A DNA stretch of 64,000 bases from Naegleria gruberi. Lineage: Eukaryota. Below are positions 28,877 to 64,000 of the stretch, one piece after another. The stretch lies in NCBI GenBank assembly GCA_000004985.1, contig GG738920.1. One strand, 5' to 3'. The notes beneath the pieces are model-generated. The model saw only the letters and a program-made list of their open reading frames with translations. It searched no databases and was not told the origin of the DNA. Numbering within the stretch: position 1 is the first letter of the stretch; the number at the start of each line of letters is the position of its first letter. Position numbers and translations under genes: made by a program.

Positions 28877-31800
28877 CTAATAGAAATAAGAATTATCCAT
28901 TCCTTCTGTCCATGAATCCACTTCTGAACATGTTGATTCTACTTCTGATTCATCTCCAGTCAAGTCATACAAGTCATCATCATCATTATAATTCTCATCA
29001 TATTCTCCTTCACTATTTTCTTCAAGATTTTGAATTTCTTCATCCGAATCCACTCTAATTTCCTTCTCTTTCGTAGCAATCATTACCAGTTCCTTAAAGT
29101 TTATCCACCCAAAACTGAAAATATTGAACTGATTTTTCTCTGTATGAGTAATGTAATACCAGGCAGAGGCAATTGCCAATCGCTCACTCTCCCCATATTT
29201 CCTTACCATCTCTTCGAAAACATTCCTAAAATGTTTCAGGTAGAATGAAATGGTGATTGCAATGGTTTCGTGAATATCATGTTCCTTATGTCCAAAGCAT
29301 TTGATATTGGTATTAATCCAACCTGAAATAATTTGTGATTCGTCCTCAACGCCATACTTTACCATATCCGAGTTGACAAATCTACTGTAATTGTAATAAT
29401 GTGGCTCTATTTCCTTCAAGTACTTGTCAAATCCGTCAACAATGAGTAATGAATTGTGCTTTTTGTTGCATTTTCCTGGTGTTTCATGTTTGAATTGTGT
29501 TTCATCAAATAGTTTTCCAAGCACTTTTTTAGACTTGTACTTTCTTTTCATAGAAGAAATCATAAAGTGTGGATATTCATATAATTTGACCTTTGATGGA
29601 ATGATTGCAAATTTACCACTCTTGGCACTGTCTACAGCTGTTGAGTGAAGCTCACAAAGTGTTAAACATTCCTTCGATGTTAAACCATTTTTTCTAAAAT
29701 CAGAATTAGCCAAATGAGTATTGGCAATCAATCCAAGATTATTTCTCGTAATAAACTCTATGAAAAAGTCTATAATATCATCTTGCTTAATCTTGTATTC
29801 TTCTTCCTCCTCGTCTTTTTTGTTTGTTGGTTTGGCTACAGCTCCAACTGAATAGTCCATTGGTTCAGAATCTGATTCAGGAATCAAGTCTGGATCCCAA
29901 TAGACAAAAAATTGATCACCATCAAGATCTGAGCCTGTTATCATGTTTGTTATTGGCCTTTTTCCTTTCTTAGAAAATACCACAACATCATTTAAATGGT
30001 AAAGTTCTGGACGATCGACTGCTGTTACTATTCTCAAATCACCTTTATGTAGAGAAGGGTTCTTTCCAACAATACATCTTCCCTTAACTACTCCAAATTC
30101 AGCATTAGGTCTATGAAAGATAGGTGATAAATTAACAAAGATTTCATTTTCCTCCAAAACTCCATACTCATCAATGGCTCCCATTAAATACGCTGATTTC
30201 TCAATATATATTTTAGTCTTGTCTCGTAATCCTTTCAATAATTGTTCCTTATATGAACTCAACATATTCATGATAAAATTTTCTGATGTTGCAATTTCTG
30301 GTACATATTTAAGAACATGGCAAATAAATGTCCTTGTATGGTTGGAATGGTAAATCGACAGCCATTCATAGGCCTTTGAGACATCGTCTGTTATACTAAG
30401 AATGGAACGTATCATTTCTCTCTGTTTTGTCATGAATATTTCATCCTTAATTCCAAGTGCTGTCAAAATTGTTATGAATTGTCTATTCAAAAATCCACTT
30501 CTCCTCTTTGAGTAATCCACAATTTCCAATTGTTTCTGTATTGAGGTAAATTTGAATTGACTCTTTCTGAAAACTATTTGTTCTCCTTTTAAAGTTGGAT
30601 CTATTGCTAATACTCCCTTTCCTCCTCCACATCTAAATTGAATAGCTGATAGTAATGATTCTCCTAATTGAAGCTTTTCCTTTACTCGTTGCATCATTTC
30701 TTCACTTATCTTTCCAATACCATCTGTAAAAGTGAATCCATTTCTTTCAATATCTTCAACTGGTTCAATATCTTTAGTAATTTCAATTGATGGAGTTGTA
30801 CTTGTTAAGCATTGTCCAAATCTTGCTGCAACCTTTGCAGGTGTTTTAATGTCAGTGAAATCTCCCATATAATCGAATGTCCTGTGGTGATGGTTTCAAC
30901 TTGTTGTAATCTCTGAGGAAAAACCAACTTGACGAATTTCTTAATTGTGAAGATGAAAATCCAAGAAATTCCAATCGTTTCATGTCAGTAATCATTATAC
31001 CTCTACTCATCAGTTGCTTGATACGATTGCTAATATTTCTGAACTCACTCGCGAACAGATTATTGAAATTATCATCTAAGAAATTAACTCTAAAAAAGTT
31101 TTCTCTACTTCCCCACTTTTTATCGGCGTATCTGATGACTAGATTTGTTTTATCAACCTCAGGAGGTAAAAAGTAAATCTTGGTAGGTGTTACAATGACC
31201 TTTTTGCACAGATTCACCTCTTGTGCAGAGTCTCCCTGCATTAATATAGAACGACTCATTTGTAATTGGTAATCTTTTGAATTTAAATACGTTTCAATAG
31301 TTTCTTCCAAATTGTAAACTCTACTTGGATACTTGATTAAATAGTCAAAGTAAATCTTTTCCAAAAGGGTTCCCATTTTGATTTTGTACTCGTTTGATTC
31401 GTCTCCTTTTAACAATTCGAAAAATTTGTCACTATAATTGCATGGACTGAAAATACCATGACTTTCTAATACCAATAAATAATATTGAATATTGTAAAAG
31501 TCAAGTTTTCTAATCTTTTCCAAAGAGGAGTTTGAAATTTCAAACTTCTTGTGACAGAAATCAATACTTTTGATTGGAACTGCCTCTATTTTCTCTTTCA
31601 ATAACTCAAACAATTTTGGTATCTGCTTTTTGACATCCTGGAACAAACTCAATTTCAGTAAAAACACCTGAGTAAGTCCAATGTCTTCAAAAAGAGTATT
31701 TGTTTCTTTGCAAATCCTTGCACGTGAGGTTGTTTTAAAATTTTCCATATACTGTTGTTCCAACATGAGTGGAATATTCTTTGATTCCAATTCCAAGAAG

Positions 31801-32401
31801 AATTTTCCAACAATCTAATTCCATTCTTAATAGTTGCCAAATTGAATCTTAATTCAAATAACTTTCCATCAAATTTAATATTCAATTTCAACATTCCATC
31901 ATGATTTCTCAAATAATAATTTCGTTTTCTCTCTTTGAAATCCTTTGAAGCACCTTTCTCATACATAAATCGACTATAATTATAAAAAGTAGGCTTTTCC
32001 GATACGAGTGGATCATCTTTCCAATATCCAAAGCTAATGACATCAATATTCAATAGTGGACTTTGCTTTGGAGTGAATACTTTAAAGGCTTGTTTTTTTC
32101 CTCCCCTAGAATTTCCACCTCTTCCTCTTCCCCTAGAATTGCCACCTCTTCCTACTGATTGAGCATTAGAAGATGATGGTGGTGGTGATGATGATTGAGT
32201 ATTAGAAGAAGAGGATGCAGAGGAATTGTTTGATTGTTGAGTTCCCGAATTTGTGTTTACATTATTTGAGGAGGAGGAAACATTTGTGGAAACTCGATTG
32301 GTTTTACCTCCCCGAGGATTGTTTTGTTGGGAGTGATGAGGACGGTTCCGATTATTATTCATTTTTTTCTTTTTGATTTTTATTAAAATTTTGAATTGCA
32401 A
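28877..32401 (-). CDS. Cellular RNA-dependent RNA polymerase (RDR/QDE-1 family), about 1200 aa, with RGG/low-complexity N-terminus
   Basis: Catalytic motif NMITGSDLDGDQFFVYWDPDLIP (DxDGD) in ORF 28877..30868. RDR N-domain block KKVIVTPTKIYFLPPEVDKTNLVIRYADKKWGSRENFFRVNFLDDN in ORF 30852..31796. RGG repeats (GRGGNSRGRGRGGNSRGG) in ORF 31655..32401. Two frame discontinuities (~30860 and ~31700-31796) imply short introns or indels. Confidence 0.85.
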
Positions 32402-32539: not shown

Positions 32540-34290
32540 TCATTGTTGATTATGTAATTGAATGAATTGATCTTGAAGTCCATTAGCATTGTTAATCTTC
32601 TTCTTTCTACAATTCTGAACCAAAAAGTAAATGACAACCATCAAGAAGGCAGTAATGAAACATCCACCAAAGAATGAAGCAACCACTGAGGCAGCAAAAA
32701 CTCCAACTCCTTCAAAAACAACGATCGTATCAGTTGACTTTCCATTATCAGCAGATGAAGAATTGTAAAACCATGGAATGGCCATCAAACTAATTCCATT
32801 ACATTCACCTGTACAATGACCTAATGTACAATTCATGGTTGCACATGGACAATTGAGAACTTCTTGAGTGATATCAAGACAATCTGGATCAATAACACCA
32901 CATCCACAATCACAACCATCAGATGCATTATAATATTGAGGAGAACATGTCCAATCTGGTGGAACATATTTCTTATTTTCACAATGACCATTGACATTAC
33001 AGAATTGATTGACAAGACAACCATAAGCAAATGAATCATAGGTTTGTTTGGTACAATCTGGATCTGGATAACCACATTCACAGTTACAGACACCATCTCC
33101 ATAATAGGAAGCAAGACATTTCCACTCAGTTGGAACAGGTCCATATTTGCTCATTACTCTTTGACATGATGCAGTTGTGGAATTACAAAAGAAGGCACCA
33201 GAAGATGGACAATTGAATAAAGAAGAACCTTGTTGTAAACAATCTGGATCGAAAACACCACATCCACAATCACAACCATCTATATTTTAAATGAATTACC
33301 ATTTTAGTAAATTTGAAATATTACCAATTATGTAAAAATAGATAAGTAATTAATTATTATATATAAAAAAAACATACCTGAAGTATTATAACTATTTGGA
33401 TTACATTTCCATCCAATTGGTACATCTCTAACAGCTCCAATACTTCTCAATCTCATTTCTTGTTTGAAATTTTCCAATTCCCAATCATTTGGCATTGACA
33501 GAACATCATTATTAGTGTCGGCATTATAATTCTTTCCATCCTTTGGACATTTAACTTTCATCAAATCAATAAATGTAATATTTGTGTTATATTCTGAAAC
33601 AAATGAAGGACTCATATCTCTCCACCATTGAGAACCATTTCCCATAGCAATAACTCTGAAACATTTGCCAGGTGGTACAATGACTTCTAATTCACCTTGA
33701 AATGGTAAACCTTCAACTCCTGTAATGTCTCTACCTCCAGATTTGGAAAATCTAAACATGTATCTATTACTGGCAAATCCAGATGCAACATGTGCTGATT
33801 TTGAAGTACTTAAAAATCCAGAATTTTGTAACAAGTCACCAATTTTAGGAATGTTATCCAAACCAGTTCCTCTAAAAGTTTCAAATTCATACTTGACTAA
33901 TTTCTTTAAAGCAACATTTAAACCAGTTGAAAAATCATGAACCCAACCAGGTCTTGAATTATTTGGTGTAACTTTCAAATGACAGTTCAATAATGGATAA
34001 AGTCTTGGATATTCTGCCTTGTAAGCATAAATATTTCTATAATCTTCATAATTAATACCTGGATTATAAGAAGTGGCAACATTTAATCCCAATTCTGTCA
34101 TGTTTGACTTGGAATTTAATTTATCATTGAGTGGTGAATTGACCACATAATTGCAATATTCTTGTGCAAGAGATGCGGCTAATATTTGACTAGTGCTACC
34201 AAGAATGAGAAGCATTGACATGATGACAACACTGATCGATGCAACGAACATGTACTGTTGTTGATCACGAGGTCCAGGACGGATAAACAT
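32540..34290 (-). CDS. Membrane-anchored mono-ADP-ribosyltransferase (R-S-E class) fused to three Cys-rich repeats and a C-terminal TM helix; 2 exons, intron 33280..33377, about 550 aa
   Basis: Exon 1 (33378..34290): signal/anchor MFVASISVVIMSMLLILGSTSQILAAS, then ART triad FRGTG (Arg), LSTSKS (STS) and FQGELEVIVPPG (E-x-E). Exon 1 ends ..NPNSYNTS at the donor cag|GTATGTTTTT; acceptor aaaatatag|ATGGTTGTG at 33279 continues in phase 1 with DGCDCGCGVFDPDC. Exon 2 holds three W-K/T-C...Y..DG-C-[DN]-C-[GE]-C-G..DPDC repeats, TM VGVFAASVVASFFGGCFITAFLMVVIYFLV and basic tail RKKK. Confidence 0.7.
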
Positions 34291-34766: not shown

Positions 34767-36362
34767 TCAGGGAAGGATGATGTTCTTGGATAGAGTGTAT
34801 TGAAATGTTTGCCAATTGACCTCAAGTACATTTGTAATAAAATTGACAGTTATGAGAGGACGATCAATTTTTAAAAGGAAATCACCATTGAATTTTACAT
34901 ATTCTAAGAGAAATTCCATATCATTACTCAATTCTGGTGGTAGAAAGATGATTAGTTTGGGAGAAATGAATTCAATCAATTTGAGAAGAATGTTCTTGTT
35001 TCGAATATATTCTGGTAAATCTTCATATTTAAAGTTTCTTCCATTCATATTCTTAATAACTGTTCCAATAATTTCAAAATCTGAAATGAATTCCAAAGGA
35101 ATTGCAGAGAAGGGCATTTTCCCAATCTTACAAACTTGCAAAACAAAATCTCTATTCCATTCAATGGTAACTTGTTTAAAATCCAAACCAGATTTGAGGG
35201 CCATCAGAACAAATTCATTTTCATTCTTGAAATGTGAAGGGATCATATGAAAAACAATACTTGATAATTGGAGAGCTGTCTTGATAATTTCAATGTCATT
35301 CTTTAAATTTTCAGAAGCAAATTGATAGGCACTTGGTAGATTCTTAATTGCCTCTAAAACAATTTCCCTGTCATTTCTCATGTCAGAACTCAATACTCTC
35401 AAAGCAATTCCACAATTTTTAACAAGTTCCAATACTAAATGTCTTTCAGTTTTGAATCTTTCAGGTATGTCCTCCAAAATAATTGTTTTTTCACGTATCA
35501 TTTCCATGACAAATTCATCATCCTCTCTCCAATTATATTCTGCAAATTGTAAGAGATGGTAATTTTGTTTTCCAATTTCCAAAAGAACTTGTCGATCATT
35601 TCCCCAATATTCTGGAAGTTTGTCCATTTGTTTCAATCCCTTTCCAACTCTACTTTTAATAGCTTTCAAAATGAAATCCTTGTCCCTCTTCAACTCATCA
35701 GAAATGAAATAAATTGCCGATGGATCATCCTTAATGGCAATTAAGGCCAATTCACAATCACCATGCATGTGAGGTAATATTTCAAAATAATCACCATTCC
35801 TCGAAAGCATCTTTCTCACAATTCTTCTCTCCTCTGGTTCATAAATATCCAATTCTGTCCATGCCTCACACCATAACATGTAATCGTCACGTTTCGATCC
35901 ATTCTGCTCGGCAATTCTCTGCAATTCTGAATCGAGTCTCAACTCTACACTAGCCCTCTCCAAAATATACCCAAATCCAGGTTGTGAAATGGCCAACAGA
36001 ATTGCCTCCCTATCACTCAACAAATCACTCATTGAAAGAATGTCAGCAGGTCTCTCCCTTATAACTGCCAATTTAAATTTACGATTATCCCGAATCTCTT
36101 TTGAAAATCGACTCATATGGAAATAATTCTCACGAATGTGCAGTAGGGCAAATTCCAAGCAATCATAATATTCAATCGGAATAAATCCAAGATTTTGATG
36201 CATGTTTCGTCGGAACTTTTTGATGGAATTTTGTCGAGTCGTTAATTTGTCAATGAAGGAGGAAATTAATGCATTTAAATAGAAATTGTTGCTGTTATTA
36301 TTGTATTGAAAATCGCAGAGGATGAGTTGAACAGGTTCGTGGCCCTCCTCCTCTTGTTCCAT
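34767..36362 (-). CDS. DUF4116-repeat protein (531 aa)
   Basis: Tandem ~35-aa units of the form D.E.VL.A[IV]K.NG.AL..[AS]S..L[KR]ND[KR]E (ELALIAIKDDPSAIYFISDELKRDKDFILKAIK; EIVLEAIKNLPSAYQFASENLKNDIEIIKTAL), matching the DUF4116 repeat. Confidence 0.6.
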   Translation of the reverse strand: MEQEEEGHEPVQLILCDFQYNNNSNNFYLNALISSFIDKLTTRQNSIKKFRRNMHQNLGFIPIEYYDCLEFALLHIRENYFHMSRFSKEIRDNRKFKLAVIRERPADILSMSDLLSDREAILLAISQPGFGYILERASVELRLDSELQRIAEQNGSKRDDYMLWCEAWTELDIYEPEERRIVRKMLSRNGDYFEILPHMHGDCELALIAIKDDPSAIYFISDELKRDKDFILKAIKSRVGKGLKQMDKLPEYWGNDRQVLLEIGKQNYHLLQFAEYNWREDDEFVMEMIREKTIILEDIPERFKTERHLVLELVKNCGIALRVLSSDMRNDREIVLEAIKNLPSAYQFASENLKNDIEIIKTALQLSSIVFHMIPSHFKNENEFVLMALKSGLDFKQVTIEWNRDFVLQVCKIGKMPFSAIPLEFISDFEIIGTVIKNMNGRNFKYEDLPEYIRNKNILLKLIEFISPKLIIFLPPELSNDMEFLLEYVKFNGDFLLKIDRPLITVNFITNVLEVNWQTFQYTLSKNIILP

Positions 36363-42387: not shown

Positions 42388-43017
42388 TTACGCATTTGTC
42401 TTGGTATCTCCAAAAAGATCACTCATATTACAAAGAGAGCTGAACATCCTAATTGTTAATTCCAGGTCGCTAGGCTCTTCACAACATCCCATCAATACCC
42501 TTTCTTTGAACAATAAAGGGTGAAGACACCACCTTGCATGTTGAATTTCTATTGAGTGGCAAACTTTCTTTTCAAACTTTGGGCTTTTTGATAGTAGATT
42601 TCGAATAGAAGTTTCAGAAGCATTTTCTTCTGCAACTTTGCTTAGTAAACTTTCAAATTCCTTTGCCAAAGGGGAAATAACATCGTTGTGGTTAGATACA
42701 TCGCTGGGGGTTATACGAAACAATGACAGTTTGCAAAGGAATCTGTTTTTAGACTCACACCATGCTGGAATCTGAAACGGTTTACTTTTATAGTATCCAG
42801 AAGAAATGTACATTCTCAAAAGGTGCGATTCATTTGCTTCTAGTGCAGACAAGTCATTTTGTATTTCTGCTTCAATACTGTTGTTAAAATTTGGATCGGA
42901 AGCAACTCTCTTTTTTGTTGGCGAATGTGGTGGTTCGTCCAATACTTGTTTTTTTGGTGGTTTCACTCTCAGTTTTTGTTTTCCTGTTGTTTTAAGGCTA
43001 TTTAATGAAGTGGGCAT
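42388..43017 (-). CDS. Hypothetical protein (209 aa), possibly the N-terminal regulatory part of the adjacent kinase-like gene
   Basis: Intact ORF on the same strand immediately upstream of the kinase-like ORFs; no domain recognised. Confidence 0.3.
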   Translation of the reverse strand: MPTSLNSLKTTGKQKLRVKPPKKQVLDEPPHSPTKKRVASDPNFNNSIEAEIQNDLSALEANESHLLRMYISSGYYKSKPFQIPAWCESKNRFLCKLSLFRITPSDVSNHNDVISPLAKEFESLLSKVAEENASETSIRNLLSKSPKFEKKVCHSIEIQHARWCLHPLLFKERVLMGCCEEPSDLELTIRMFSSLCNMSDLFGDTKTNA

Positions 43018-43494
43018 TTTTTTTAAACATTAAAGCTGTAGTGAAAAAGGCGCCAACCATGAGGTTACTAACATTTCTCTTTATTTTACACAATTGACAT
43101 TCGATATTCAATAAATAGAACGAGCAAAAGAAAGTTTGAACTCTGAATCGTAACAATTACACAATGTAAAGTATTAGAGTTAAACTATTTCAAATATTGA
43201 GTAATGATATCCTTAATTATCATTTATTATGCGAATTAATCTACACGTGTTGTAGCATAAACTCAAATAACGAATGGAATAAAACAGACTAAAAGGAAAT
43301 TCACTGCAAAAAATCGACATGTCATTAATACGGTTAAGCTTGATCATTCTTAATATTTCCATAAAAAGGTTCTTTCCTTGTCTATACATAACACCATGAA
43401 ACCTTTAAAACCGCCAACACTTGTAACTGACACGTTTGTGCATCTGTCACTGCTCATTGTATCAAATGAATTACTCAAGCAAAATATTGAAAAA

Positions 43495-44001
43495 ATGTCA
43501 ATAATCAAAACCTTTCCTGCCTTGTTTATGAAATTCTTCATGGCTTACACTTGGTTTGAACCTCTTTTCTGTGAAATATTCCTCGGCTTGTTGTTATTCT
43601 TCTTTCCAACAAATGAATTTGTGATCAATTCCTTTGTTCACACACCACTTTTCAATGCCATGAAAGAATCACTTCCTATTCATGATAGTTTGGCCTTTCT
43701 GATGAGATTTATTTCAATGTTATTGACCACGTTTGGATGTTTGCACTTTTTAATACTGCTAACATGCAACTATCATAGAAAAACAATTGCCCCACAGAAG
43801 AAGTGGTCTCAAAATGTTCTCTTCAATGTACTCATTGCAGTGTTATTGATTGGTGATTGTTTTCATGTGTTGTGTGTTTTAACATTGGAAGGTTCTTTGA
43901 AATCTCAAATTGTTTATCAACTTCCATTAACTATTTACTGTATAATAGTGAGGGCGATGTTTATTATCATGAATCAATTGAAATTATTGAATGATTTTTA
44001 A
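43495..44001 (+). CDS. Small multi-pass membrane protein 'Y' copy 2 (about 168 aa)
   Basis: MSIIKTFPALFMKFFMAYTWFEPLFCEIFLGLLLFFFPTNEFVINSFVHTPLFNAMKESLPIHDSLAFLMRFISMLLT.. is about 85% identical to 45514..46029. The longer ORF from 43378 includes likely 5'-UTR. Confidence 0.5.
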   Translation: MSIIKTFPALFMKFFMAYTWFEPLFCEIFLGLLLFFFPTNEFVINSFVHTPLFNAMKESLPIHDSLAFLMRFISMLLTTFGCLHFLILLTCNYHRKTIAPQKKWSQNVLFNVLIAVLLIGDCFHVLCVLTLEGSLKSQIVYQLPLTIYCIIVRAMFIIMNQLKLLNDF

Positions 44002-44383: not shown

Positions 44384-45264
44384 TTACCAAACATACAATC
44401 TACCAGGATATCCAGCACATAATTCGGATAATATTCCAAGTGGTAAGAATATTAAAACTTTCCATTCGAAAGCTAATTGTAAAAATGCTGAAAATCCTTT
44501 TCCAATTGAGGTAAATGGTAAATCCACATGTTTAACCATAATTGGTGGAATATAATCGGAACAATGAGCTATTGATCGTATGGATGCATTGAGTATCAAG
44601 AAGCAGTTCAGTAAAATTGGATCATTTGAAATTCGAATTGGAAAAATTCGAAACATGATGAACGGAAGAATGAAATACCAAAACGAAAAGGCAAAGTATG
44701 TAATAAGGAACTGTAATAAATAGAAATTAAACTTTTGATAGCGGTAGATTATTAGAGAGGAATCTGTTTGCTCTTTAGTTGGTTTTTCATTATTCGAAAC
44801 TATGGATATCGATAATAATTGCACTAAACACAACATGTAATGAATCCAATATAATAAACCAGGAAATTGAGGAAACCACACACTTCCATAATAATTAAAA
44901 TACCATGCCCATCTATGAACAGTTACACAAAACACGTGTTTAGTTGAATTTCCAATAAAAAAACAATAACTTACAATGTCAAATCTATTGGAAAGGTCAG
45001 AATATGAGACCATATATTAAACAGTGTCTGATGATAGACATATCCAGTCACTGATTGCAACACAAAGTTTTTATGACCATAATTTCTCAATGGTTGCGAA
45101 GTAAATCCATTACCTATGAAAAAATTAACAATTATTCCAGTTTCGCGAAACCCCACAAAAAACTTACTTTGCCACTTGGAAATAAGAACTGGTGCACATG
45201 TCGATGACAACACGAACAATGCATTCCCAACAAACAACCAGGGAACGTTCTCTGTAAGTTGCAT
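44384..45264 (-). CDS. Multi-pass membrane protein 'X' copy 2, 2+ exons
   Basis: Start ATG 45262-45264 (MQLTENVPWLFVGNALFVLSSTCAPVLISKWQSK), intron ~45105-45165, body exon 44384..45013 with VHRWAWYFNYYGSVWFPQFPGLLYWIHYMLCLVQLLSISIVSNNE and HCSDYIPPIMVKH, CAGYPGRLYVW. Confidence 0.5.
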
Positions 45265-45513: not shown

Positions 45514-46029
45514 ATGAAAAAAATGACAGCAAACCATTCCATCCTAGCACTATTTATGAAAGTGTTCATTACCTACATGTGGTTTGAACCAATTTTCTGT
45601 GAAATTGTACTCGGCTTGTTGTTATTCTTCTTTCCAACGAATGAATTTGTGATTAATTCATTTGTTCACACACCACTCTTCAATGCCATGAAAGAATCAC
45701 TTCCTATTCATGATAGTTTGGCCTTTCTGATGAGATTTATTTCAATGTTATTAACTATTTTTGGAGGTTTACATTTACTGTTAATGGTTGCTTGTAATTA
45801 TCATCAAAGAGATGTGGAATCTCAGAATAAGTGGTCTAAGAATGTTCTCTTCAATGCAATGGTGGCCATTCTGTTGGTTGGTGATTGTTTTCATGTGTTG
45901 TGTGTTTTAACATTGGACGGTTCTTTGAAATCTCAAATTGTTTATCAACTTCCATTAACTATTTACTGTATAATAGTGAGGGGCATGTTTATTATCATGA
46001 ATCAATTCAAAATGTTGAATGATTTTTAG
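45514..46029 (+). CDS. Small multi-pass membrane protein 'Y' copy 3 (171 aa), divergently paired with X copy 2
   Basis: MKKMTANHSILALFMKVFITYMWFEPIFCEIVLGLLLFFFPTNEFVINSFVHTPLFNAMKESLPIHDSLAFLMRFISMLLTIFGG...; four hydrophobic segments. Confidence 0.5.
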   Translation: MKKMTANHSILALFMKVFITYMWFEPIFCEIVLGLLLFFFPTNEFVINSFVHTPLFNAMKESLPIHDSLAFLMRFISMLLTIFGGLHLLLMVACNYHQRDVESQNKWSKNVLFNAMVAILLVGDCFHVLCVLTLDGSLKSQIVYQLPLTIYCIIVRGMFIIMNQFKMLNDF

Positions 46030-49091: not shown

Positions 49092-51461
49092 ATGTTTGCA
49101 GGAGATCACGGTCGGAATATTCTCCAACTAGTCGAAGATGACGACGATCAGGTCATTAATTTATCAGACTTTGAATTTAACTTGAATTTACAAACACAAA
49201 TACAAGAATTGGAACCCATTCGTGAATTTTCCAAACAAATTTCATACATTTCGCACCAACAACAACAAGAAGCCTTTTCATTCCAAGATCATCAAGATCA
49301 TGATCACCAATTTAACGTTAAATTATGTCAAGATGATTGGTTCATGATTCTCGATTACATTCCATTCCCTGATTTTTGTAAATTTTCACTTGTTTGTTCA
49401 TCATTTGCAGAATTATTAACTTTTAATAGGAGACATTTGGTGATGAGAGGAATTTTGAAGGATTTTCCATCACTATTAAAAGATCATCATTTTACCACTG
49501 TAGAATCATTGGGAATGTTGGCAAGTGAAAGATCTCCGAGTGATGATCTCTCCAATTTTCAAAAATCATTATTCTCTGATATGATTTATTTCCTTATAGA
49601 GAAGAAGAGATATAAACAAAATTTATGGAAATTCATTGAAATGGATAAAATTAGAGAAATGGATGAGAGATTGTTCATTTTACCATTTAGATCATCAATG
49701 ATCATTAACAGTTTTTATGATTTTTTGGATATTCCACAAGAATTGTTGAATTGTAAAAAATTTATTATGAAATTTTTTGAAATTATTCCAAAGGCTTGTT
49801 CAAAATTTTTCATATTTTTAAATGAAAATTTGAAAAATGATGAGGAAATTGTCAAATTGGCTGTTTCTAATAATGGATGGTTGATTAAATTTGTTAAAAA
49901 TCCAAATAAGGAAATTGTTAATTTGGCATTTCAATCTAAATATAGATTTGACATTTCTCCCACTTATAATCAATATAGAAAAGTATTTGAAAAATATAAT
50001 GATAGTTTAATTCACTTATCAGATTCATATTATGAATTATTAGATGAAAAATCAATTGTTTCTGATTATAGAAAATCAAAAAAAACAAATGATAATTCCT
50101 TATTTAGAAAATATATACAATTAGATTCTAAATATGGATTTAAAAATATTCAATTTCTATTATTATTTGCCTATTTTGAACAATCACCTGAATTGAAAGA
50201 TGTTCTTTTATATTACTATTATAATACTAATAATACTACTAAAAATAGAAAACATTACTTATATGTCGATGATTTAATTACTGACATGATGTGTTTTCCA
50301 GACATGTTTGAACCATCACTTTCCAATATAATTCAAGTTCCTACTCAAATATTAAATTGTAAAACTAGAGAAATAACCATCTCACAAATATTAAATAGAA
50401 TATTAAATGATAATTTTACATTTAATACTATATTAAATAATGTTAATATGAAATTTACAAAATCAAGTATTGAATATTTAAGAAAAAGATTAATTCATCA
50501 ATCCAAAGTTACACCACTCTTTACACGTCTCTATTTTACAAAATATTTTGAAATTAGAAATGAAAATGATGAAAATAATGAAATTAGGAATGAAATTAGG
50601 AATGAAAATGATGAAAATGAGAGAATTAAATTATGGAATGAAATTTCCAAATGTAGAAAATTAAATTTAAAAATGCTCAAATATTATCCAAATTATTATT
50701 CACAATTGAGTGATGAATTTAAGAATGAAAAGGAATTTAAAGCAATTGCAATGGAAAATTTAAAGTGCAATTTGAAATATTTTAATGTGGAAAATAATGA
50801 TGATGAATTTGTAATGGCACTTTCTGGTAATTTTAAAAGAAATATTAAAATATTGAAAAGTAAATATGGAAAGGAAAATATTAAGGAAAGAATTAAACGA
50901 ATTTTCCAACAAGAAAATGGAAGAATTCGTAAAGAATGGTTAAATTGGCCACGTGTCTATGATTTATATCAATTCCATCTTTGTTATTTATATACTGATA
51001 TGGAACATGTATTTACCACTGAAGATCAAATTGAAATGATTGATCATGGAACACCTGCAATTGTTAAGAAAATTGCCATAACCAATGATGAAAGAATTTT
51101 AGAAAGAATTCGAATGAAGAATTTATTGGACATTTGGTTTTCAACCAATTCAACTAGTTTCATGGTAGTAACATTTAGATATTGTTTGAGTTATAAATCA
51201 CATCAAGCTGTTTATAGAGCTTTGGATAGAACTTTTATTACATTACAAAAATCTGATCAATTTTTATCAAAGGTTTTACAAGTGGTTCCTAAATTTGTAA
51301 AGGTATTTTTCACAGTTAGAAAATCATATTATTATGATACACGTACTGTTATTGATTTCCCATTTGAATTAATTAGAGAACTTGCATTGGAAAATCAGAG
51401 AATTGTACATTATTTACCTAGAAATATTCAAAAGAGATTGAAAAATCCATTCTCCCTTTAA
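49092..51461 (+). CDS. F-box-like N-terminus plus DUF4116-repeat protein (789 aa); its 3' two-thirds lie inside the left arm of the inverted duplication
   Basis: DDWFMILDYIPFPDFCKFSLVCSSFAELL (F-box-like); NENLKNDEEIVKLAVSNNGWLIKFVKNPNKEIVNLAF (DUF4116-type repeat); NDENNEIRNEIRNENDENER low-complexity insert. Confidence 0.6.
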   Translation: MFAGDHGRNILQLVEDDDDQVINLSDFEFNLNLQTQIQELEPIREFSKQISYISHQQQQEAFSFQDHQDHDHQFNVKLCQDDWFMILDYIPFPDFCKFSLVCSSFAELLTFNRRHLVMRGILKDFPSLLKDHHFTTVESLGMLASERSPSDDLSNFQKSLFSDMIYFLIEKKRYKQNLWKFIEMDKIREMDERLFILPFRSSMIINSFYDFLDIPQELLNCKKFIMKFFEIIPKACSKFFIFLNENLKNDEEIVKLAVSNNGWLIKFVKNPNKEIVNLAFQSKYRFDISPTYNQYRKVFEKYNDSLIHLSDSYYELLDEKSIVSDYRKSKKTNDNSLFRKYIQLDSKYGFKNIQFLLLFAYFEQSPELKDVLLYYYYNTNNTTKNRKHYLYVDDLITDMMCFPDMFEPSLSNIIQVPTQILNCKTREITISQILNRILNDNFTFNTILNNVNMKFTKSSIEYLRKRLIHQSKVTPLFTRLYFTKYFEIRNENDENNEIRNEIRNENDENERIKLWNEISKCRKLNLKMLKYYPNYYSQLSDEFKNEKEFKAIAMENLKCNLKYFNVENNDDEFVMALSGNFKRNIKILKSKYGKENIKERIKRIFQQENGRIRKEWLNWPRVYDLYQFHLCYLYTDMEHVFTTEDQIEMIDHGTPAIVKKIAITNDERILERIRMKNLLDIWFSTNSTSFMVVTFRYCLSYKSHQAVYRALDRTFITLQKSDQFLSKVLQVVPKFVKVFFTVRKSYYYDTRTVIDFPFELIRELALENQRIVHYLPRNIQKRLKNPFSL

Positions 51462-51545
51462 CCAAATATTAAAAAATATATTTATTATTTTCATCATTTA
51501 TTGCCATATTTGAAAATTCAATTTAAAAGGTAAAAAAAAAAACAA

Positions 51546-52577
51546 TCAAGGTATTCCTTGTATTAAATCTTGAAGTATTTCATGACTTGTTGAATCTAAT
51601 TTACAATTGGTTCTATTTTGTCCAGACCACAATTGAGAAAAGTCGAAATTTAATTCTCTCTCCAAATGATTTCTCAGTGGTGTGAAATAATTGGTTGATT
51701 TTGGAAAGGGTGGTGCATATTCTGAAATAGTTCCAATTTCTTTCATTGCTCTATTTACAATGGAACGAGCAGGTCTTCCTGTGAATATATTAGTCACTGC
51801 AGTTGGTAATGAAACATCTGTCAATAACTGTTTATATTTAACAGTTGATTCCTGACATGTTAAAAATACAGTTCCACATTGAACACCACTAGCTCCCAAT
51901 TGAAATGCTGCTGTTACTGTCTGTGCATCAACAATTCCACCAGCAGCCACAACAGGTACCTTCACTTTCTTTACAATTTGTGGTAGGAGTGAAAATAATC
52001 CCATTTGAGTGGAAATATCATTTGATAAAAACATTCCTCTATGTCCACCTGCTTCTATTCCCTGTGCAATTATAATATCCACTCCATTCTCTTCCAAATA
52101 AAGTGCTTCTTCAACTGTTGTAGCACTTGACATGATTCTAATATTCATCCTTTTCAATTCCTTTACAATTTCTTTAGAAGGTAAACCAAAATGAAAGCTA
52201 ACTACAATTGGTTTAAATTCATTCAATACAGGAATAATATTTTCATTGAAAGGTAATCTGGAAATTGAAGAAGAAATTTTAAATTCCACATTAAATTCTT
52301 GATAATATTTTTCAATTATTTGGCGCCATTGATTTTCATTTTTAGTATTATTGGGATTTTCATGACAAAAGAAATTTAAATTGAATGAATGATCGGTGGC
52401 TAATTTAATCTTTTTAATTTCTCTTCTCATTTCTTCAATATCTAACGTGGCACATGGTAATGAACCTAATGCTCCAAATTTGGAAACTTGAATGGCGAGT
52501 GTGGAGTTTTGAGCACCAGCCATTGGAGCTTGAATAATCGGATATTTGACTTTGAGCAATCTCTTGATTGGATTCAT
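51546..52577 (-). CDS. Nitronate monooxygenase (2-nitropropane dioxygenase-like, FMN-dependent), copy 1
   Basis: YPIIQAPMAGAQNSTLAIQVSKFGALGSL N-terminal NMO signature; GIEAGGHRG; VVAAGGIVD glycine-rich FMN-phosphate motif. 343 aa. Confidence 0.8.
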   Translation of the reverse strand: MNPIKRLLKVKYPIIQAPMAGAQNSTLAIQVSKFGALGSLPCATLDIEEMRREIKKIKLATDHSFNLNFFCHENPNNTKNENQWRQIIEKYYQEFNVEFKISSSISRLPFNENIIPVLNEFKPIVVSFHFGLPSKEIVKELKRMNIRIMSSATTVEEALYLEENGVDIIIAQGIEAGGHRGMFLSNDISTQMGLFSLLPQIVKKVKVPVVAAGGIVDAQTVTAAFQLGASGVQCGTVFLTCQESTVKYKQLLTDVSLPTAVTNIFTGRPARSIVNRAMKEIGTISEYAPPFPKSTNYFTPLRNHLERELNFDFSQLWSGQNRTNCKLDSTSHEILQDLIQGIP

Positions 52578-52921
52578 TTTTTTTGATTATGAGAATGTAT
52601 TAATTTCGAATTGTCCACCCGATTTTGTAAACTTTGTAAATCTTTACAATAATATTATGCAATATTGATAAGGATTCTTTTTTTGAAAATTCCGATTTGT
52701 GAACCAATAAAACAAGCCTTGAAAATGCGCCATGTTTTTTTTACATTAAAATCAACTAGTTGGTGGTGAGAATCATCGTCATACAACAAATTGACATTAC
52801 GCAACTCCTTACCACATAATGTTCTTTTCAGAGCCTTGTTGTTGTGTGATCAAAAAAGCCTCGACAGAATAAAAGCCTTTGATGATGGAATTTTTTAATT
52901 TAAATTTAAATTTAAAAAAAA

Positions 52922-53629
52922 ATGTTCACCAAGACTCTCCGTTCCGGACTCATCACCAAGAAGAATATTATCGGTTTTGCTACTCAACAAGTTAGAAGCA
53001 AACATCAATTACCAACATTGGACTATGCTGTCGAACAAGGTATTCATCCAGTTATTACTGCTCGTCAATTAGATTTCCACTACAATAAGCATCACAAGAC
53101 CTATGTTGATAAGCTTAACGCATTGGTTGAAGGTACTTCATTTGAATCTCAACCTTTGGATGCTATAATTCAAAAAGTAGCCTATGATAGTGACCCAAAG
53201 AGTGTTGCCATCTTCAACAATGCTGCTCAACATTTTAATCACTCCTTCTATTGGAAATCATTGGTTCCAGGTGGTGATAAGATTGAAAACTATCCACTCA
53301 TTAAACAAGAAATTGAAAAGCAATTCGGTTCCGTTGATGCTTTCAAACAACAATTCACTGAAAAGGCTACCACTTTGTTCGGTTCTGGTTGGACTTGGTT
53401 AGTTTTGGATGGTACTTCATTGAGAATTTGGAATGGTTCTAATGCTCAAACTCCAATTGCTGAAAATTTAATTCCATTGCTCACTTGTGATGTTTGGGAA
53501 CATGCTTATTATTTGGATCATCAAAATAGAAGACCAGATTATTTGAAGACTTTCTGGGAAGCAGTTAACTGGGGATTCGTCAACAAGTCACTCCAATTTG
53601 CTGTTGAACAATCTAGTATTAAATTGTAA
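52922..53629 (+). CDS. SOD2: Mn/Fe superoxide dismutase with N-terminal presequence (mitochondrial MnSOD-like), copy 1
   Basis: LPTLDYAVEQGIHPVITARQLDFHYNKHHKTYV and DVWEHAYYLDHQNRRPDY (D-x-W-E-H-A-Y-Y signature); 235 aa with basic, Ser/Thr-rich leader MFTKTLRSGLITKK. Confidence 0.9.
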   Translation: MFTKTLRSGLITKKNIIGFATQQVRSKHQLPTLDYAVEQGIHPVITARQLDFHYNKHHKTYVDKLNALVEGTSFESQPLDAIIQKVAYDSDPKSVAIFNNAAQHFNHSFYWKSLVPGGDKIENYPLIKQEIEKQFGSVDAFKQQFTEKATTLFGSGWTWLVLDGTSLRIWNGSNAQTPIAENLIPLLTCDVWEHAYYLDHQNRRPDYLKTFWEAVNWGFVNKSLQFAVEQSSIKL

Positions 53630-53885
53630 TTTAATTACTATTACTACACTATATAGTAAATAATAATATAAAAAGGATTTAATTTATTAAGCCTAACTTG
53701 TTTGAATTTTTACTACATTCTTCCACTGATCAATTGAATGGTTAGTCAATTAATTCCGAAATAATAATCAAAGCTCATAATAATATTCCTAAATCAATTA
53801 TTCAGTAATCAAAAGAATAAATTTATATTTGAAATTTTAAAGCTGTTTACAGGTCGGAGTAAAATTTATTGGTTGCTAAGGATAG

Positions 53886-55178
<1,293 letters not shown>

Positions 55179-59000: not shown

Positions 59001-60182
<1,182 letters not shown>

Positions 60183-60437
60183 CTATCCTTAGCAACCAAT
60201 AAATTTTACTCCGACCTGTAAACAGCTTTAAAATTTCAAATATAAATTTATTCTTTTGATTACTGAATAATTGATTTAGGAATATTATTATGAGCTTTGA
60301 TTATTTCGGAATTAATTGACTAACCATTCAATTGATCAGTGGAAGAATGTAGTAAAAATTCAAACAAGTTAGGCTCATCTAATAAATTAAATCCTTTTTA
60401 TATTATTATTTACTATAGTGTAGTAATAGTAATTAAA

Positions 60438-61145
60438 TTACAATTTAATACTAGATTGTTCAACAGCAAATTGGAGTGACTTGTTGACGAATCCCCAGTT
60501 AACTGCTTCCCAGAAAGTCTTCAAATAATCTGGTCTTCTATTTTGATGATCCAAATAATAAGCATGTTCCCAAACATCACAAGTGAGCAATGGAATTAAA
60601 TTTTCAGCAATTGGAGTTTGAGCATTAGAACCATTCCAAATTCTCAATGAAGTACCATCCAAAACTAACCAAGTCCAACCAGAACCGAACAAAGTGGTAG
60701 CCTTTTCAGTGAATTGTTGTTTGAAAGCATCAACGGAACCGAATTGCTTTTCAATTTCTTGTTTAATGAGTGGATAGTTTTCAATCTTATCACCACCTGG
60801 AACCAATGATTTCCAATAGAAGGAGTGATTAAAATGTTGAGCAGCATTGTTGAAGATGGCAACACTCTTTGGGTCACTATCATAGGCTACTTTTTGAATA
60901 ATAGCATCCAAAGGTTGAGATTCAAATGAAGTACCTTCAACCAATGCGTTAAGCTTATCAACATAGGTCTTGTGATGCTTATTGTAGTGGAAATCTAATT
61001 GACGAGCAGTAATAACTGGATGAATACCTTGTTCGACAGCATAGTCCAATGTTGGTAATTGATGTTTGCTTCTAACTTGTTGAGTAGCAAAACCGATAAT
61101 ATTCTTCTTGGTGATGAGTCCGGAACGGAGAGTCTTGGTGAACAT
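60438..61145 (-). CDS. SOD2: Mn/Fe superoxide dismutase, copy 2 (protein identical to copy 1)
   Basis: Identical 235-aa translation to 52922..53629. Confidence 0.9.
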   Translation of the reverse strand: MFTKTLRSGLITKKNIIGFATQQVRSKHQLPTLDYAVEQGIHPVITARQLDFHYNKHHKTYVDKLNALVEGTSFESQPLDAIIQKVAYDSDPKSVAIFNNAAQHFNHSFYWKSLVPGGDKIENYPLIKQEIEKQFGSVDAFKQQFTEKATTLFGSGWTWLVLDGTSLRIWNGSNAQTPIAENLIPLLTCDVWEHAYYLDHQNRRPDYLKTFWEAVNWGFVNKSLQFAVEQSSIKL

Positions 61146-61489
61146 TTTTTTTTAAATTTAAATTTAAATTAAAAAATTCCATCATCAAAGGCTTTTATTC
61201 TGTCGAGGCTTTTTTGATCACACAACAACAAGGCTCTGAAAAGAACATTATGTGGTAAGGAGTTGCGTAATGTCAATTTGTTGTATGACGATGATTCTCA
61301 CCACCAACTAGTTGATTTTAATGTAAAAAAAACATGGCGCATTTTCAAGGCTTGTTTTATTGGTTCACAAATCGGAATTTTCAAAAAAAGAATCCTTATC
61401 AATATTGCATAATATTATTGTAAAGATTTACAAAGTTTACAAAATCGGGTGGACAATTCGAAATTAATACATTCTCATAATCAAAAAAA

Positions 61490-62521
61490 ATGAATCCAAT
61501 CAAGAGATTGCTCAAAGTCAAATATCCGATTATTCAAGCTCCAATGGCTGGTGCTCAAAACTCCACACTCGCCATTCAAGTTTCCAAATTTGGAGCATTA
61601 GGTTCATTACCATGTGCCACGTTAGATATTGAAGAAATGAGAAGAGAAATTAAAAAGATTAAATTAGCCACCGATCATTCATTCAATTTAAATTTCTTTT
61701 GTCATGAAAATCCCAATAATACTAAAAATGAAAATCAATGGCGCCAAATAATTGAAAAATATTATCAAGAATTTAATGTGGAATTTAAAATTTCTTCTTC
61801 AATTTCCAGATTACCTTTCAATGAAAATATTATTCCTGTATTGAATGAATTTAAACCAATTGTAGTTAGCTTTCATTTTGGTTTACCTTCTAAAGAAATT
61901 GTAAAGGAATTGAAAAGGATGAATATTAGAATCATGTCAAGTGCTACAACAGTTGAAGAAGCACTTTATTTGGAAGAAAATGGAGTGGATATTATAATTG
62001 CACAGGGAATAGAAGCAGGTGGACATAGAGGAATGTTTTTATCAAATGATATTTCCACTCAAATGGGATTATTTTCACTCCTACCACAAATTGTAAAGAA
62101 AGTGAAGGTACCTGTTGTGGCTGCTGGTGGAATTGTTGATGCACAGACAGTAACAGCAGCATTTCAATTGGGAGCTAGTGGTGTTCAATGTGGAACTGTT
62201 TTTTTAACATGTCAGGAATCAACTGTGAAATATAAAAAGTTATTGACAGATGTTTCATTACCAACTGCAGTGACTAATATATTCACAGGAAGACCTGCTC
62301 GTTCCATTGTAAATAGAGCAATGAAAGAAATTGGAACTATTTCAGAATATGCACCACCCTTTCCAAAATCAACCAATTATTTCACACCACTGAGAAATCA
62401 TTTGGAGAGAGAATTAAATTTCGACTTTTCTCAATTGTGGTCTGGACAAAATAGAACCAATTGTAAATTAGATTCAACAAGTCATGAAATTCTTCAAGAT
62501 TTAATACAAGGAATACCTTGA
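61490..62521 (+). CDS. Nitronate monooxygenase, copy 2 (one substitution Q->K relative to copy 1)
   Basis: 343-aa translation identical to 51546..52577 except KYKQLLTD -> KYKKLLTD. Confidence 0.8.
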   Translation: MNPIKRLLKVKYPIIQAPMAGAQNSTLAIQVSKFGALGSLPCATLDIEEMRREIKKIKLATDHSFNLNFFCHENPNNTKNENQWRQIIEKYYQEFNVEFKISSSISRLPFNENIIPVLNEFKPIVVSFHFGLPSKEIVKELKRMNIRIMSSATTVEEALYLEENGVDIIIAQGIEAGGHRGMFLSNDISTQMGLFSLLPQIVKKVKVPVVAAGGIVDAQTVTAAFQLGASGVQCGTVFLTCQESTVKYKKLLTDVSLPTAVTNIFTGRPARSIVNRAMKEIGTISEYAPPFPKSTNYFTPLRNHLERELNFDFSQLWSGQNRTNCKLDSTSHEILQDLIQGIP

Positions 62522-62623
62522 TTGATTTTTTTTTTACCTTTTAAATTGAATTTTCAAATATGGCAATAAATGATGAAAATAATAAATATATTTTTTAATA
62601 TTTTTAAAGGGAGAATGGATTTT

Positions 62624-64000
62624 TCAATCTCTTTTGAATATTTCTAGGTAAATAATGTACAATTCTTGATTTTCCAATGCAAGTTCTCTAATTAATTCAA
62701 ATGGGAAATCAATAACAGTACGTGTATCATAATAATATGATTTTCTAACTGTGAAAAATACCTTTACAAATTTAGGAACCACTTGTAAAACCTTTGATAA
62801 AAATTGATCAGATTTTTGTAATGTAATAAAAGTTCTATCCAAAGCTCTATAAACAGCTTGATGTGATTTATAACTCAAACAATATCTAAATGTTACTACC
62901 ATGAAACTAGTTGAATTGGTTGAAAACCAAATGTCCAATAAATTCTTCATTCGAATTCTTTCTAAAATTCTTTCATCATTGGTTATGGCAATTTTCTTAA
63001 CAATTGCAGGTGTTCCATGATCAATCATTTCAATTTGATCTTGAATGGTAAATACATGTTCCATATCAGTATATAAATAACAAAGATGGAATTGATATAA
63101 ATCATAGACACGTGGCCAATTTAACCATTCTTTACGAATTCTTCCATTTTCTTGTTGGAAAATTCGTTTAATTCTTTCCTTAATATTTTCCTTTCCATAT
63201 TTACTTTTCAATATTTTAATATTTCTTTTAAAATTACCAGAAAGTGCCATTACAAATTCATCGTCATTATTTTCCACATTAAAATATTTCAAATTGCATT
63301 TTAAATTTTCCATTGCAATTGCTTTAAATTCCTTTTCATTCTTAAATTCATCACTCAATTGTGAATAATAATTTGGATAATATTTGAGCATTTTTAAATT
63401 TAATTTTCTACCTTTGGAAATTTCATTCCATAATTTAATTCTCTCATTTTCATCATTTTCATTCCTAATTTCATTCCTAATTTCATCATTTTCATTTCTA
63501 GGTTCAAAATATTTTGTAAAATAGAGACGTGTAAAGAGTGGTGTAACTTTGGATTGATGAATTAATCTTTTTCTTAAATATTCAATACTTGATTTTGTAA
63601 ATTTCATATTAACATTATTTAATATAGTATTAAATGTAAAATTATCATTTAATATTCTATTTAATATTTGTGAGATGGTTATTTCTCTAGTTTTACAATT
63701 TAATATTTGAGTAGGAACTTGAATTATATTGGAAAGTGATGGTTCAAACATGTCTGGAAAACACATCATGTCAGTAATTAAATCATCGACATATAAGTAA
63801 TGTTTTCTATTTTTAGTAGTATTATTAGTATTATAATAGTAATATAAAAGAACATCTTTCAATTCAGGTGATGTTCAAAATAGGCAAATAATAATAGAAA
63901 TTGAATATTTTTAAATCCACATTTGGAATCTAATTGTATATATTTTCTAAATAAGGAATTATCATTTGTTTTTTTTGATTTTCTATAATCAGAAACAATT
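62624..64000 (-). pseudogene. Right-arm copy of the F-box-like/DUF4116 gene 3' portion, carrying two 1-bp deletions (frameshifts), an indel in the NDEN/IRNE repeat and substitutions; partial at window end
   Basis: 412-aa ORF matches residues ~378-775 of the 789-aa protein, but gaaaatcaGagaattg (left) is gaaaatcaagaattg (right), changing the C-terminus to ..ENQELYIIYLEIFKRD*. ttgaacaAtcacctg is ttgaacatcacctg near 63880, breaking the upstream frame. C->G (SKCRK to SKGRK) and TTEDQ to TIQDQ substitutions. Confidence 0.55.

Follow-up and report, generated by a model that had tools for sequence, protein, structure and literature searches.

To our knowledge, extracellular ADP-ribosylation of arginine has been well studied in vertebrates only, in which the ARTC enzymes, attached by glycosylphosphatidylinositol (GPI) anchors, act on P2X7, integrins and CD73. 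Arginine is also the acceptor of bacterial toxins such as Tre1 and ExoS/ExoT, and ExE is the arginine-specific form of the catalytic motif. The roles of the R, STS and E residues of ADP-ribosyltransferases (ARTs) have been summarised previously (PMC8120803), and the nesting of eukaryotic mono-ARTs among bacterial toxin ARTs is an established pattern (PMC3417536). Here, we analyzed a 64,000-nucleotide (nt) stretch of Naegleria gruberi DNA (contig GG738920.1, referred to as the window) and examined a gene on its minus strand, NAEGRDRAFT_81994, which extends from start to stop codon over 32540..34290 and encodes a protein of 550 amino acids (aa) after splicing. As far as can be judged from its sequence, this protein (UniProt D2W127) is probably an active, arginine-specific ecto-mono-ART that a disulfide-rich stalk displays on the surface of the cell or inside the phagosome.

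The R-S-E mono-ADP-ribosyltransferase domain, delimited by profile matches, covers aa ~75-250 (33541..34068, minus strand, as are all features of this gene given below). It contains R140 in FRGTG (33873..33871), S161-T-S163 in GFLSTSKS (33810..33802) and E200-L-E202 in QGELEVIVPPG (33693..33685), and four ART-domain Cys (C46, C103, C210 and C248) were conserved. A profile made of the ART domains of the heterolobosean orthologues only (profile A2) was searched against the solved structures in PDB and reached the bacterial toxins Tre1 (1.5e-8), Vis (2.6e-8), ExoT (6.7e-6) and ExoS (3.5e-5). In these alignments, R140 was matched with the Arg of the Tre1 motif ETYRGT, the Vis motif AYRGT and the ExoT motif TFRGT, S161-T-S163 with FMSTSAK, FTSTST and YLSTSRD of the same three proteins, and E200-L-E202 with NEAEVLYPP (Tre1) and KEAEVLF (Vis). 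The R-S-ExE triad that a preliminary description of this DNA had read from the letters was thus found at the places it had indicated, with the toxin motifs aligned to it. A broader profile of 28 sequences detected Tre1 at 1.6e-31 and also rat ecto-ART2.2 (1GXY) at 3.2e-16 over nearly the whole chain. Y90, N102, R140 and E202 were invariant in the alignment of these 28 homologues, and ExE was retained in the close relatives from Naegleria lovaniensis (P0001), an environmental contig (P0002) and Willaertia magna (P0003). An exhaustive hidden Markov model search of 1.84 billion representatives identified 629 relatives at E<=1e-3, and the top non-orthologous relatives that were scanned matched the ART or ADPrib_exo_Tox families; a word-indexed homologue search with the ART profile returned P0005 alone. 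By profile comparison, the head of D2W127 is homologous to the arginine-specific ARTs, and it would be expected to adopt the ART fold, a split beta-sandwich with an NAD+ cleft. A literature search on amoebal or protist ecto-ARTs found nothing specific, and the mentions of Naegleria in a survey of polymorphic toxins concerned other domains, not this one. Among the relatives from the exhaustive search, P0055, P0056 and P0059 were giant multi-ART proteins (2200-3700 aa) with four to nine tandem ADPrib_exo_Tox domains, one of them also with Phage_Mu_F; they are possibly virion-packaged multi-ART proteins of large phages.

The ART domain is followed by three Cys-rich repeat units. Unit 1 (aa 290-351, 33140..33423, 8 Cys) has the intron of the gene inside the Asp codon of its DGCDCGCG core, unit 2 (aa 352-408, 32969..33139, 8 Cys) has the variant core DGVCNCECGYPDPDC, and unit 3 (aa 409-468, 32789..32968, 10 Cys) is membrane-proximal, with an ending, NCPC..NC..GHC.GEC, that was conserved in all orthologues. 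The consensus of the unit is x-P-x-x-W-[TK]-C-x(4)-Y-x(2-3)-D-G-C-D-C-G-C-G-x-x-D-P-D-C-x(8-10)-C-x(5-6)-C-x(3-5)-C, with a length of ~55-65 residues (~58 for the three in D2W127) and 8 Cys in each, or 10 in the membrane-proximal one. Units matching a regular expression for the core numbered 218, spread over D2W127 and 47 of the 48 homologues that had been retrieved. Over 44 diverse units that were aligned, the W, five Cys and two Asp were invariant and three further Cys were present in at least 90%, which makes up the 8 Cys per unit; both the core pattern and this alignment bore out the three repeats noticed in the preliminary description. The stalk was called Ca-binding-like in the preliminary description, and the conserved Asp cluster (DG-C-D-C...D-P-D-C) would at most be compatible with cation binding. 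An AF2 model of units 2-3, based on 37 sequences, was confident (pLDDT 88.9). No model in Pfam or NCBIfam matched the repeats, nor did any in NCBIfam match D2W127 as a whole or the bacterial repeat proteins described below. Foldseek comparison of the repeat model with PDB gave nothing significant, the best matches being LDLR-A and megalin modules at E=3.7, and there was no significant structural match in BFVD (best E=4.9). No known Ca-binding Cys-rich module was thus matched in sequence or structure, and membership in the LDL-receptor class A family was rejected, given the lack of a Pfam or NCBIfam match and Foldseek hits only at E>=3.7. DUF4215 (PF13948) was also considered and rejected: it had no match on D2W127 at E<=1, and none at E<=0.1 on the multi-repeat proteins P0004 and P0013.

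To examine the occurrence of the unit in prokaryotes, a degenerate DNA pattern for DGCDCGCGxxDPDC was scanned over data with one genome per species. At least 120 loci were detected, nearly all of them in Myxococcota, including Nannocystaceae, Polyangiaceae, Sorangium, Sandaracinaceae, Kofleriaceae and Archangium. Some loci carried only unresolved labels such as 'Deltaproteobacteria bacterium' or 'bacterium', and one was labelled Bdellovibrionales. A word-indexed search with a single-repeat profile gave 15 short fragments and nothing more. In bacteria, the partners of the unit were a trypsin-like protease, lysyl oxidase, a CARDB-plus-HExxH protein, InlB-type repeats, DUF4215 and Temptin_C. Because it accompanies such varied secreted and surface proteins, the unit appears to be a promiscuous extracellular accessory module. 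In these searches, the repeat is an undescribed domain family that otherwise occurs almost only in predatory myxobacteria. As the family has at least 218 units among the proteins retrieved and at least 120 Myxococcota loci, is not covered by Pfam or NCBIfam and lacks a structural neighbour, it is worth a description of its own.

The topology of D2W127 was examined by a Kyte-Doolittle scan, which revealed just two hydrophobic segments, at aa 11-41 and 487-529. The stretch between these two contains all nine N-x-S/T sequons and 30 of the 32 Cys. The first segment belongs to an N-terminal signal peptide (aa 1 to ~42, 34165..34290) with a hydrophobic core at aa 14-33 and small-residue sites after ILA (before A) and after SLA (before Q). 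The signal peptides of the orthologues are shorter and typical, ending at the conserved SLA, and cleavage would be expected in D2W127 as well. The second segment contains a single transmembrane (TM) helix (aa ~495-525, GVGVFAASVVASFFGGCFITAFLMVVIYFLV; 32618..32710) with a hydropathy peak of up to 2.45, and a hydrophobic segment was present at the matching place in P0001, P0002 and P0003. It is followed by a cytoplasmic tail (aa 526-550, 32543..32617) in which a basic cluster, QNCRKKK, precedes a motif that the orthologues have in common with D2W127, L-x-[DEQ]-x-F-[IV]-[QE], which might act as a sorting signal. Since the hydrophobic segment continues into a hydrophilic basic tail of 25 residues, it is a TM anchor rather than a C-terminal GPI signal. 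The N-terminal hydrophobic signal, the C-terminal TM helix and the short basic tail of the preliminary description were all recovered in the hydropathy scan. By composition and hydropathy, D2W127 is predicted to be a type I membrane glycoprotein with a membrane-distal ART head.

The same architecture was observed in other organisms. Full-length, collinear relatives were found in N. lovaniensis (P0001; 549 aa, 53% identity), in W. magna (P0003; 579 aa, 45%) and on the environmental contig (P0002; 529 aa, 50%), and a more distant one, P0009 (515 aa, 34%), was collinear as well but had no TM helix. Together with P0070, P0009 (L004 93-1640) represents a second, more distant clade with ART and three repeats and without the TM helix. 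The orthologue genes are uninterrupted open reading frames (ORFs) of 1650 nt in N. lovaniensis, 1740 nt in W. magna, 1590 nt on contig L003 and 1548 nt on L004. Thus, the fusion of ART and repeats is independent of the intron call in N. gruberi. In addition, a low-coverage Naegleria contig (L005) has the same gene, syntenic with the N. lovaniensis locus and broken into four frames. On the basis of these sequences, the ART-plus-repeat gene is conserved across Heterolobosea.

The N. gruberi copy alone contains an intron, which is absent from the intronless orthologues. Exon 1 (33378..34290, 913 nt) encodes aa 1-304 and the first base of codon 305, that is, the signal peptide, the ART domain, a linker and the start of unit 1. 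It ends in phase 1, reading ...ACT TCA G before the GTATGT donor, and aa 1-304 of the spliced protein mapped to 34290..33379 at 100% (tblastn). The spliceosomal intron (33280..33377, 98 nt, GTATGT...TAG, phase 1) ends in ...AAAATATAG and has a TACTAA branch-like element ~35 nt upstream of the acceptor; its GC content is 13%, compared with 35% for the exons and 32% for the window. Exon 2 (32540..33279, 740 nt with the stop codon at 32542..32540) encodes the remainder of unit 1, units 2 and 3, the TM helix and the cytoplasmic tail. The joined coding sequence (34290..33378 plus 33279..32540) has 1653 nt and is in frame, giving 550 aa and a stop. The junction splits an Asp codon into G and AT, and this Asp is the first residue of 'DGCDCGCG' in unit 1; splicing therefore restores a unit 1 that matches units 2 and 3. 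Across the junction, aa 288-331 showed 57% identity to unit 3 (E=1e-11, tblastn). The predicted 33378^33279 junction is supported by this in-frame reconstruction of the motif, by comparison with the orthologues and by the existing JGI gene model. The spliced product is identical to N. gruberi EFC37287.1 / XP_002670031.1 / NAEGRDRAFT_81994 / D2W127, for which the UniRef name is "NAD(P)(+)--arginine ADP-ribosyltransferase". Both the gene model and its ART label were therefore available in public databases before, and the splice is a rediscovery; the claims of one gene instead of two, and of a donor at 33378/33377 in phase with an acceptor at 33280/33279, agree with the public 550-aa protein. A literature search on the locus tag and accessions found no paper mentioning the gene among those covered. 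It should be noted that retention of the intron (33328-33377) would add 16 codons before a stop and give a product of 320 aa (ORF 33328-34290), possibly a soluble secreted ART isoform without stalk and without anchor.

If D2W127 is an active ecto-mono-ART, its mode of action might be as follows. The signal peptide would route the chain into the endoplasmic reticulum, and the TM helix and the 25-residue basic tail would hold the protein in the membrane, with the head outside the cell or inside phagosomes and food vacuoles, whose lumen is topologically equivalent. Three disulfide-knotted Cys/Asp-rich modules of ~58 residues each would form a stalk or binding arm of ~180 residues, which would keep the head off the membrane or position it on a ligand. 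The membrane-distal head, an R-S-ExE mono-ADP-ribosyltransferase (cholera-toxin-like, C3/ExoS/Tre1-type), would use free NAD+ and transfer ADP-ribose to Arg side chains of proteins nearby, with NAD+ hydrolysis as a side reaction. In this scheme, the enzymatic activity, the arginine specificity, the role of the stalk and the source of NAD+ are inferred. The targets may be surface proteins of the amoeba itself or proteins of its prey; modification of host proteins or self/non-self signalling, as proposed in the preliminary description, is speculation.

Several observations weigh against an active arginine-specific ecto-enzyme. Pfam ART (PF01129, gathering cut-off 22.3 bits) was the best-scoring family for D2W127, with 16.6 bits only (E=0.005) for the protein alone, and ADPrib_exo_Tox scored 13.9 bits, also below its cut-off. 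In the Pfam check suggested in the preliminary description, the relatives P0001 (24.9 bits) and P0009 (29.0 bits) passed the ART cut-off, whereas D2W127 did not, nor did the W. magna protein (20.8 bits). An AF2 model of aa 40-292 with an alignment of 6 sequences was unusable (pLDDT 42). Because of this fold model and the score of D2W127 below the Pfam cut-off, the ART assignment rests on profile searches. Moreover, the distant relatives of the same architecture have QxE (EDQSEV in P0009) or ExQ (GEWQV in P0070) in place of ExE, so activity or specificity is not uniform in the wider family; the change in motif implies another acceptor specificity or loss of activity in these two proteins, as far as sequence can tell. 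With ~20 residues, the hydrophobic stretch at the N-terminus is long, and it might remain as an anchor without being cleaved. Little free NAD+ is present outside cells, so that the substrate supply of a free-living amoeba may be uncertain. Finally, the nearest solved relative, Tre1, is an antibacterial toxin that acts inside cells and not an ecto-enzyme.

One alternative is that the protein is a weapon directed against prey or competitors, in which the modules bind a component of the bacterial envelope and the ART head, either shed or made soluble by intron retention, modifies bacterial proteins in the phagosome or the medium. We consider this unlikely, though with a chance large enough to deserve attention. 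It would fit the antibacterial type VI secretion system (T6SS) toxin Tre1 as closest solved relative, with Vis and ExoS/T as others, the near-confinement of the repeat to Myxococcota, in which proteases and other secreted enzymes carry it, and the 320-aa secreted ART without stalk or anchor that an intron-retaining transcript would encode; eukaryotic mono-ARTs have also been described as nested in the bacterial toxin ART radiation (PMC3417536). However, every Naegleria and Willaertia orthologue retains the TM anchor and the tail motif, a pattern that points to a resident membrane protein, and there is no translocation domain that could bring the head into the bacterial cytoplasm. Another alternative builds on the side reaction. 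In the absence of an acceptor, NAD+ is hydrolysed by R-S-E ARTs, vertebrate ART2 and bacterial toxins among them, and D2W127 might be mainly an ecto-NAD+ glycohydrolase that converts NAD+ from lysed prey to nicotinamide and ADP-ribose for salvage, with little modification of proteins. The conservation of the catalytic Glu, and of R and STS as the residues that bind NAD+, would fit such an enzyme. However, the first Glu of ExE, which is linked to transfer onto arginine, is kept in all four close orthologues, and a scavenging hydrolase needs no elaborate stalk; this explanation appears improbable.

Loss of catalysis was also considered, that is, an adhesin or receptor with the ART fold as a mere binding domain. 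The degenerate ExE in relatives of the same architecture (ExQ in P0070 and QxE in P0009) and the weak Pfam ART score of D2W127 would be consistent with it, but the proteins of N. gruberi, N. lovaniensis and W. magna, and P0002 as well, all keep R140, STS and ExE intact despite an overall identity of 45-53%, and R140 and E202 are invariant in 28 homologues, so that we regard a dead enzyme as very improbable. The possibility of two separate genes, or of a bacterial contaminant or assembly artefact with a coincidental intron, has next to no probability left. It was raised by plain ORF calling, which splits the locus into 33328..34290 and 32540..33154, and by a prokaryote-style call of a 204-aa piece in ENA (P0050). 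Against it, four other organisms or contigs have the fusion as a single intronless ORF, a repeat unit is made complete by the split Asp codon, the intron has canonical ends and only 13% GC, and the flanking genes are eukaryotic; the fused orthologues, the Asp codon and the flanks effectively refute it. In particular, bacterial contamination was excluded on the basis of the exon GC content (35% against 32% for the window), the spliceosomal intron and the eukaryotic neighbours (RdRP and DUF4116).

Should the active ecto-mono-ART be correct, a conserved TM-anchored R-S-ExE enzyme in Heterolobosea would mean that a free-living protist uses the chemistry known from vertebrates at its surface. The nearest solved relatives point to independent recruitment of the enzyme from the bacterial toxin pool. 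What is unusual about the protein is its TM anchor and its undescribed repeat of the myxobacterial type. A more far-reaching proposal, which we regard as unlikely, is that the repeat is an undescribed and structurally novel extracellular domain that predatory Myxococcota and bacterivorous amoebae of the Heterolobosea have exchanged and that targets the arginine-ART of the Naegleria surface or phagosome to prey envelopes or to a specific self ligand. If such exchange and targeting were true, the protist ecto-ART system would have evolved independently of the vertebrate one, and the enzyme might be a surface marker of the Naegleria lineage or be related to virulence there. One member of the genus, N. 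fowleri, is a pathogen, for which an enzyme conserved at the surface might offer an antigen or a drug target if it is present in that species.

The flanks of the gene and the rest of the window were also examined. Directly downstream of the ART gene lies a eukaryotic RNA-dependent RNA polymerase (RdRP) gene (28877-32401, minus strand; PF05183, E=9e-139) with a low-complexity N-terminal part rich in S/N/G/R; as it is spread over three overlapping or adjacent ORFs, it probably contains introns. The upstream neighbour (34767-36362, minus strand) has 531 aa with at least 6 DUF4116 repeats (E=2e-58). The protein collection contained no exact match to this protein, and the plain ORF therefore probably deviates from the public model. 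In N. lovaniensis (L001) and on L005, an oxysterol-binding-protein (OSBP) gene is upstream and CorA downstream of the ART gene. This OSBP/CorA neighbourhood is not kept in N. gruberi, and the locus has therefore been rearranged; the gene context offers no functional clue. Three further ORFs of the window were exact N. gruberi proteins from the same scaffold of 218,836 bp. In view of the exact protein matches, the 'fungal-like genome' of the preliminary description has to be corrected: N. gruberi belongs to Heterolobosea within Discoba. Two duplications were observed in the window. One is a near-perfect inverted duplication (50183-54245 and 59823-63872, with a spacer of ~5.6 kb) of four collinear blocks (2190 nt at 100%, 829 nt at 99%, 483 nt at 100% and 395 nt at 99%), which doubles the ORFs 51546-52577/61490-62521 (343 aa) and 52922-53629/60438-61145 (235 aa) and represents either a palindromic segmental duplication of very recent origin or an artefact of the assembly. 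The other is a direct repeat (43490-43789 and 45518-45817) of 81% identity, 2028 nt apart; it lies near ORFs of equal length (209 aa; 42388-43017 and 44384-45013), which suggests a tandem gene duplication.

D2W127 was compared with known systems. Like the vertebrate ecto-ARTs (ARTC1-5, PF01129; rat ART2.2, 1GXY), it has the features of a disulfide-containing R-S-ExE mono-ART of the secretory pathway that is attached to the membrane on the extracellular side, and its sequence is closely similar to their ExE-V-[LI]-[IV]-P-P motif. However, those enzymes are GPI-anchored (ART1-4) or secreted (ART5) instead of having a TM helix and tail, they are without the three Cys-rich modules, and profile A2 missed ART2.2 at E<=1 and reached the bacterial toxins; in addition, D2W127 comes from a discoban protist. 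The closest solved sequences are Tre1 of the Serratia proteamaculans T6SS (6DRE/6DRH), Vis of Vibrio splendidus (4XZJ), for which the PDB name gives arginine as the acceptor, and ExoS/ExoT of Pseudomonas (6GN0/6GNN). Their Y-x-x-L-N helix and their [FY]RG[TS], [FM]STS and ExEV[LI] motifs align with D2W127, whereas these toxins are soluble, are delivered into target cells by T6SS, the type III secretion system or unknown routes, and have neither the signal peptide plus TM topology nor the Cys-rich repeats nor the conserved disulfide Cys in the ART core. The nearest non-orthologous relatives were secreted metagenomic ARTs of ~240-320 aa (P0057, P0058, P0061, P0062, P0065, P0077, P0082 and P0090; E=1e-23 to 1e-9), which share with D2W127 a signal peptide, four equivalent Cys, N-C-x-L, P-x-W-[VI] and a C-terminal beta-strand-plus-Cys element; they differ in lacking both the Cys-rich repeats and the TM helix, and many of them end in an acidic tail.

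On the side of the stalk, the Myxococcota repeat proteins (for example, P0004, P0008, L018, L070 and L080) have the same W-x-C...DGCDCGCG-x-x-DPDC unit with a period of ~55-65 residues and the same invariant W, five Cys and two Asp as D2W127. They differ in having up to 12 units, heads such as trypsin-like protease, lysyl oxidase, CARDB and others, and lipoprotein or MYXO-CTERM-like ends, and no ART domain was found in those examined. The DUF4215 (PF13948) repeats of the kin-recognition receptor TraA are likewise tandem, Cys-rich and extracellular, typical of myxobacteria and also present in eukaryotes. They belong to a sequence family different from that of the D2W127 unit, and they co-occur with this unit in P0042, as separate regions, and in L053. 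The TraA repeats sit between a recognition head and an anchor (PMC6626042), and, purely by analogy with them, the units of D2W127 might serve as a stalk between the ART head and the membrane.

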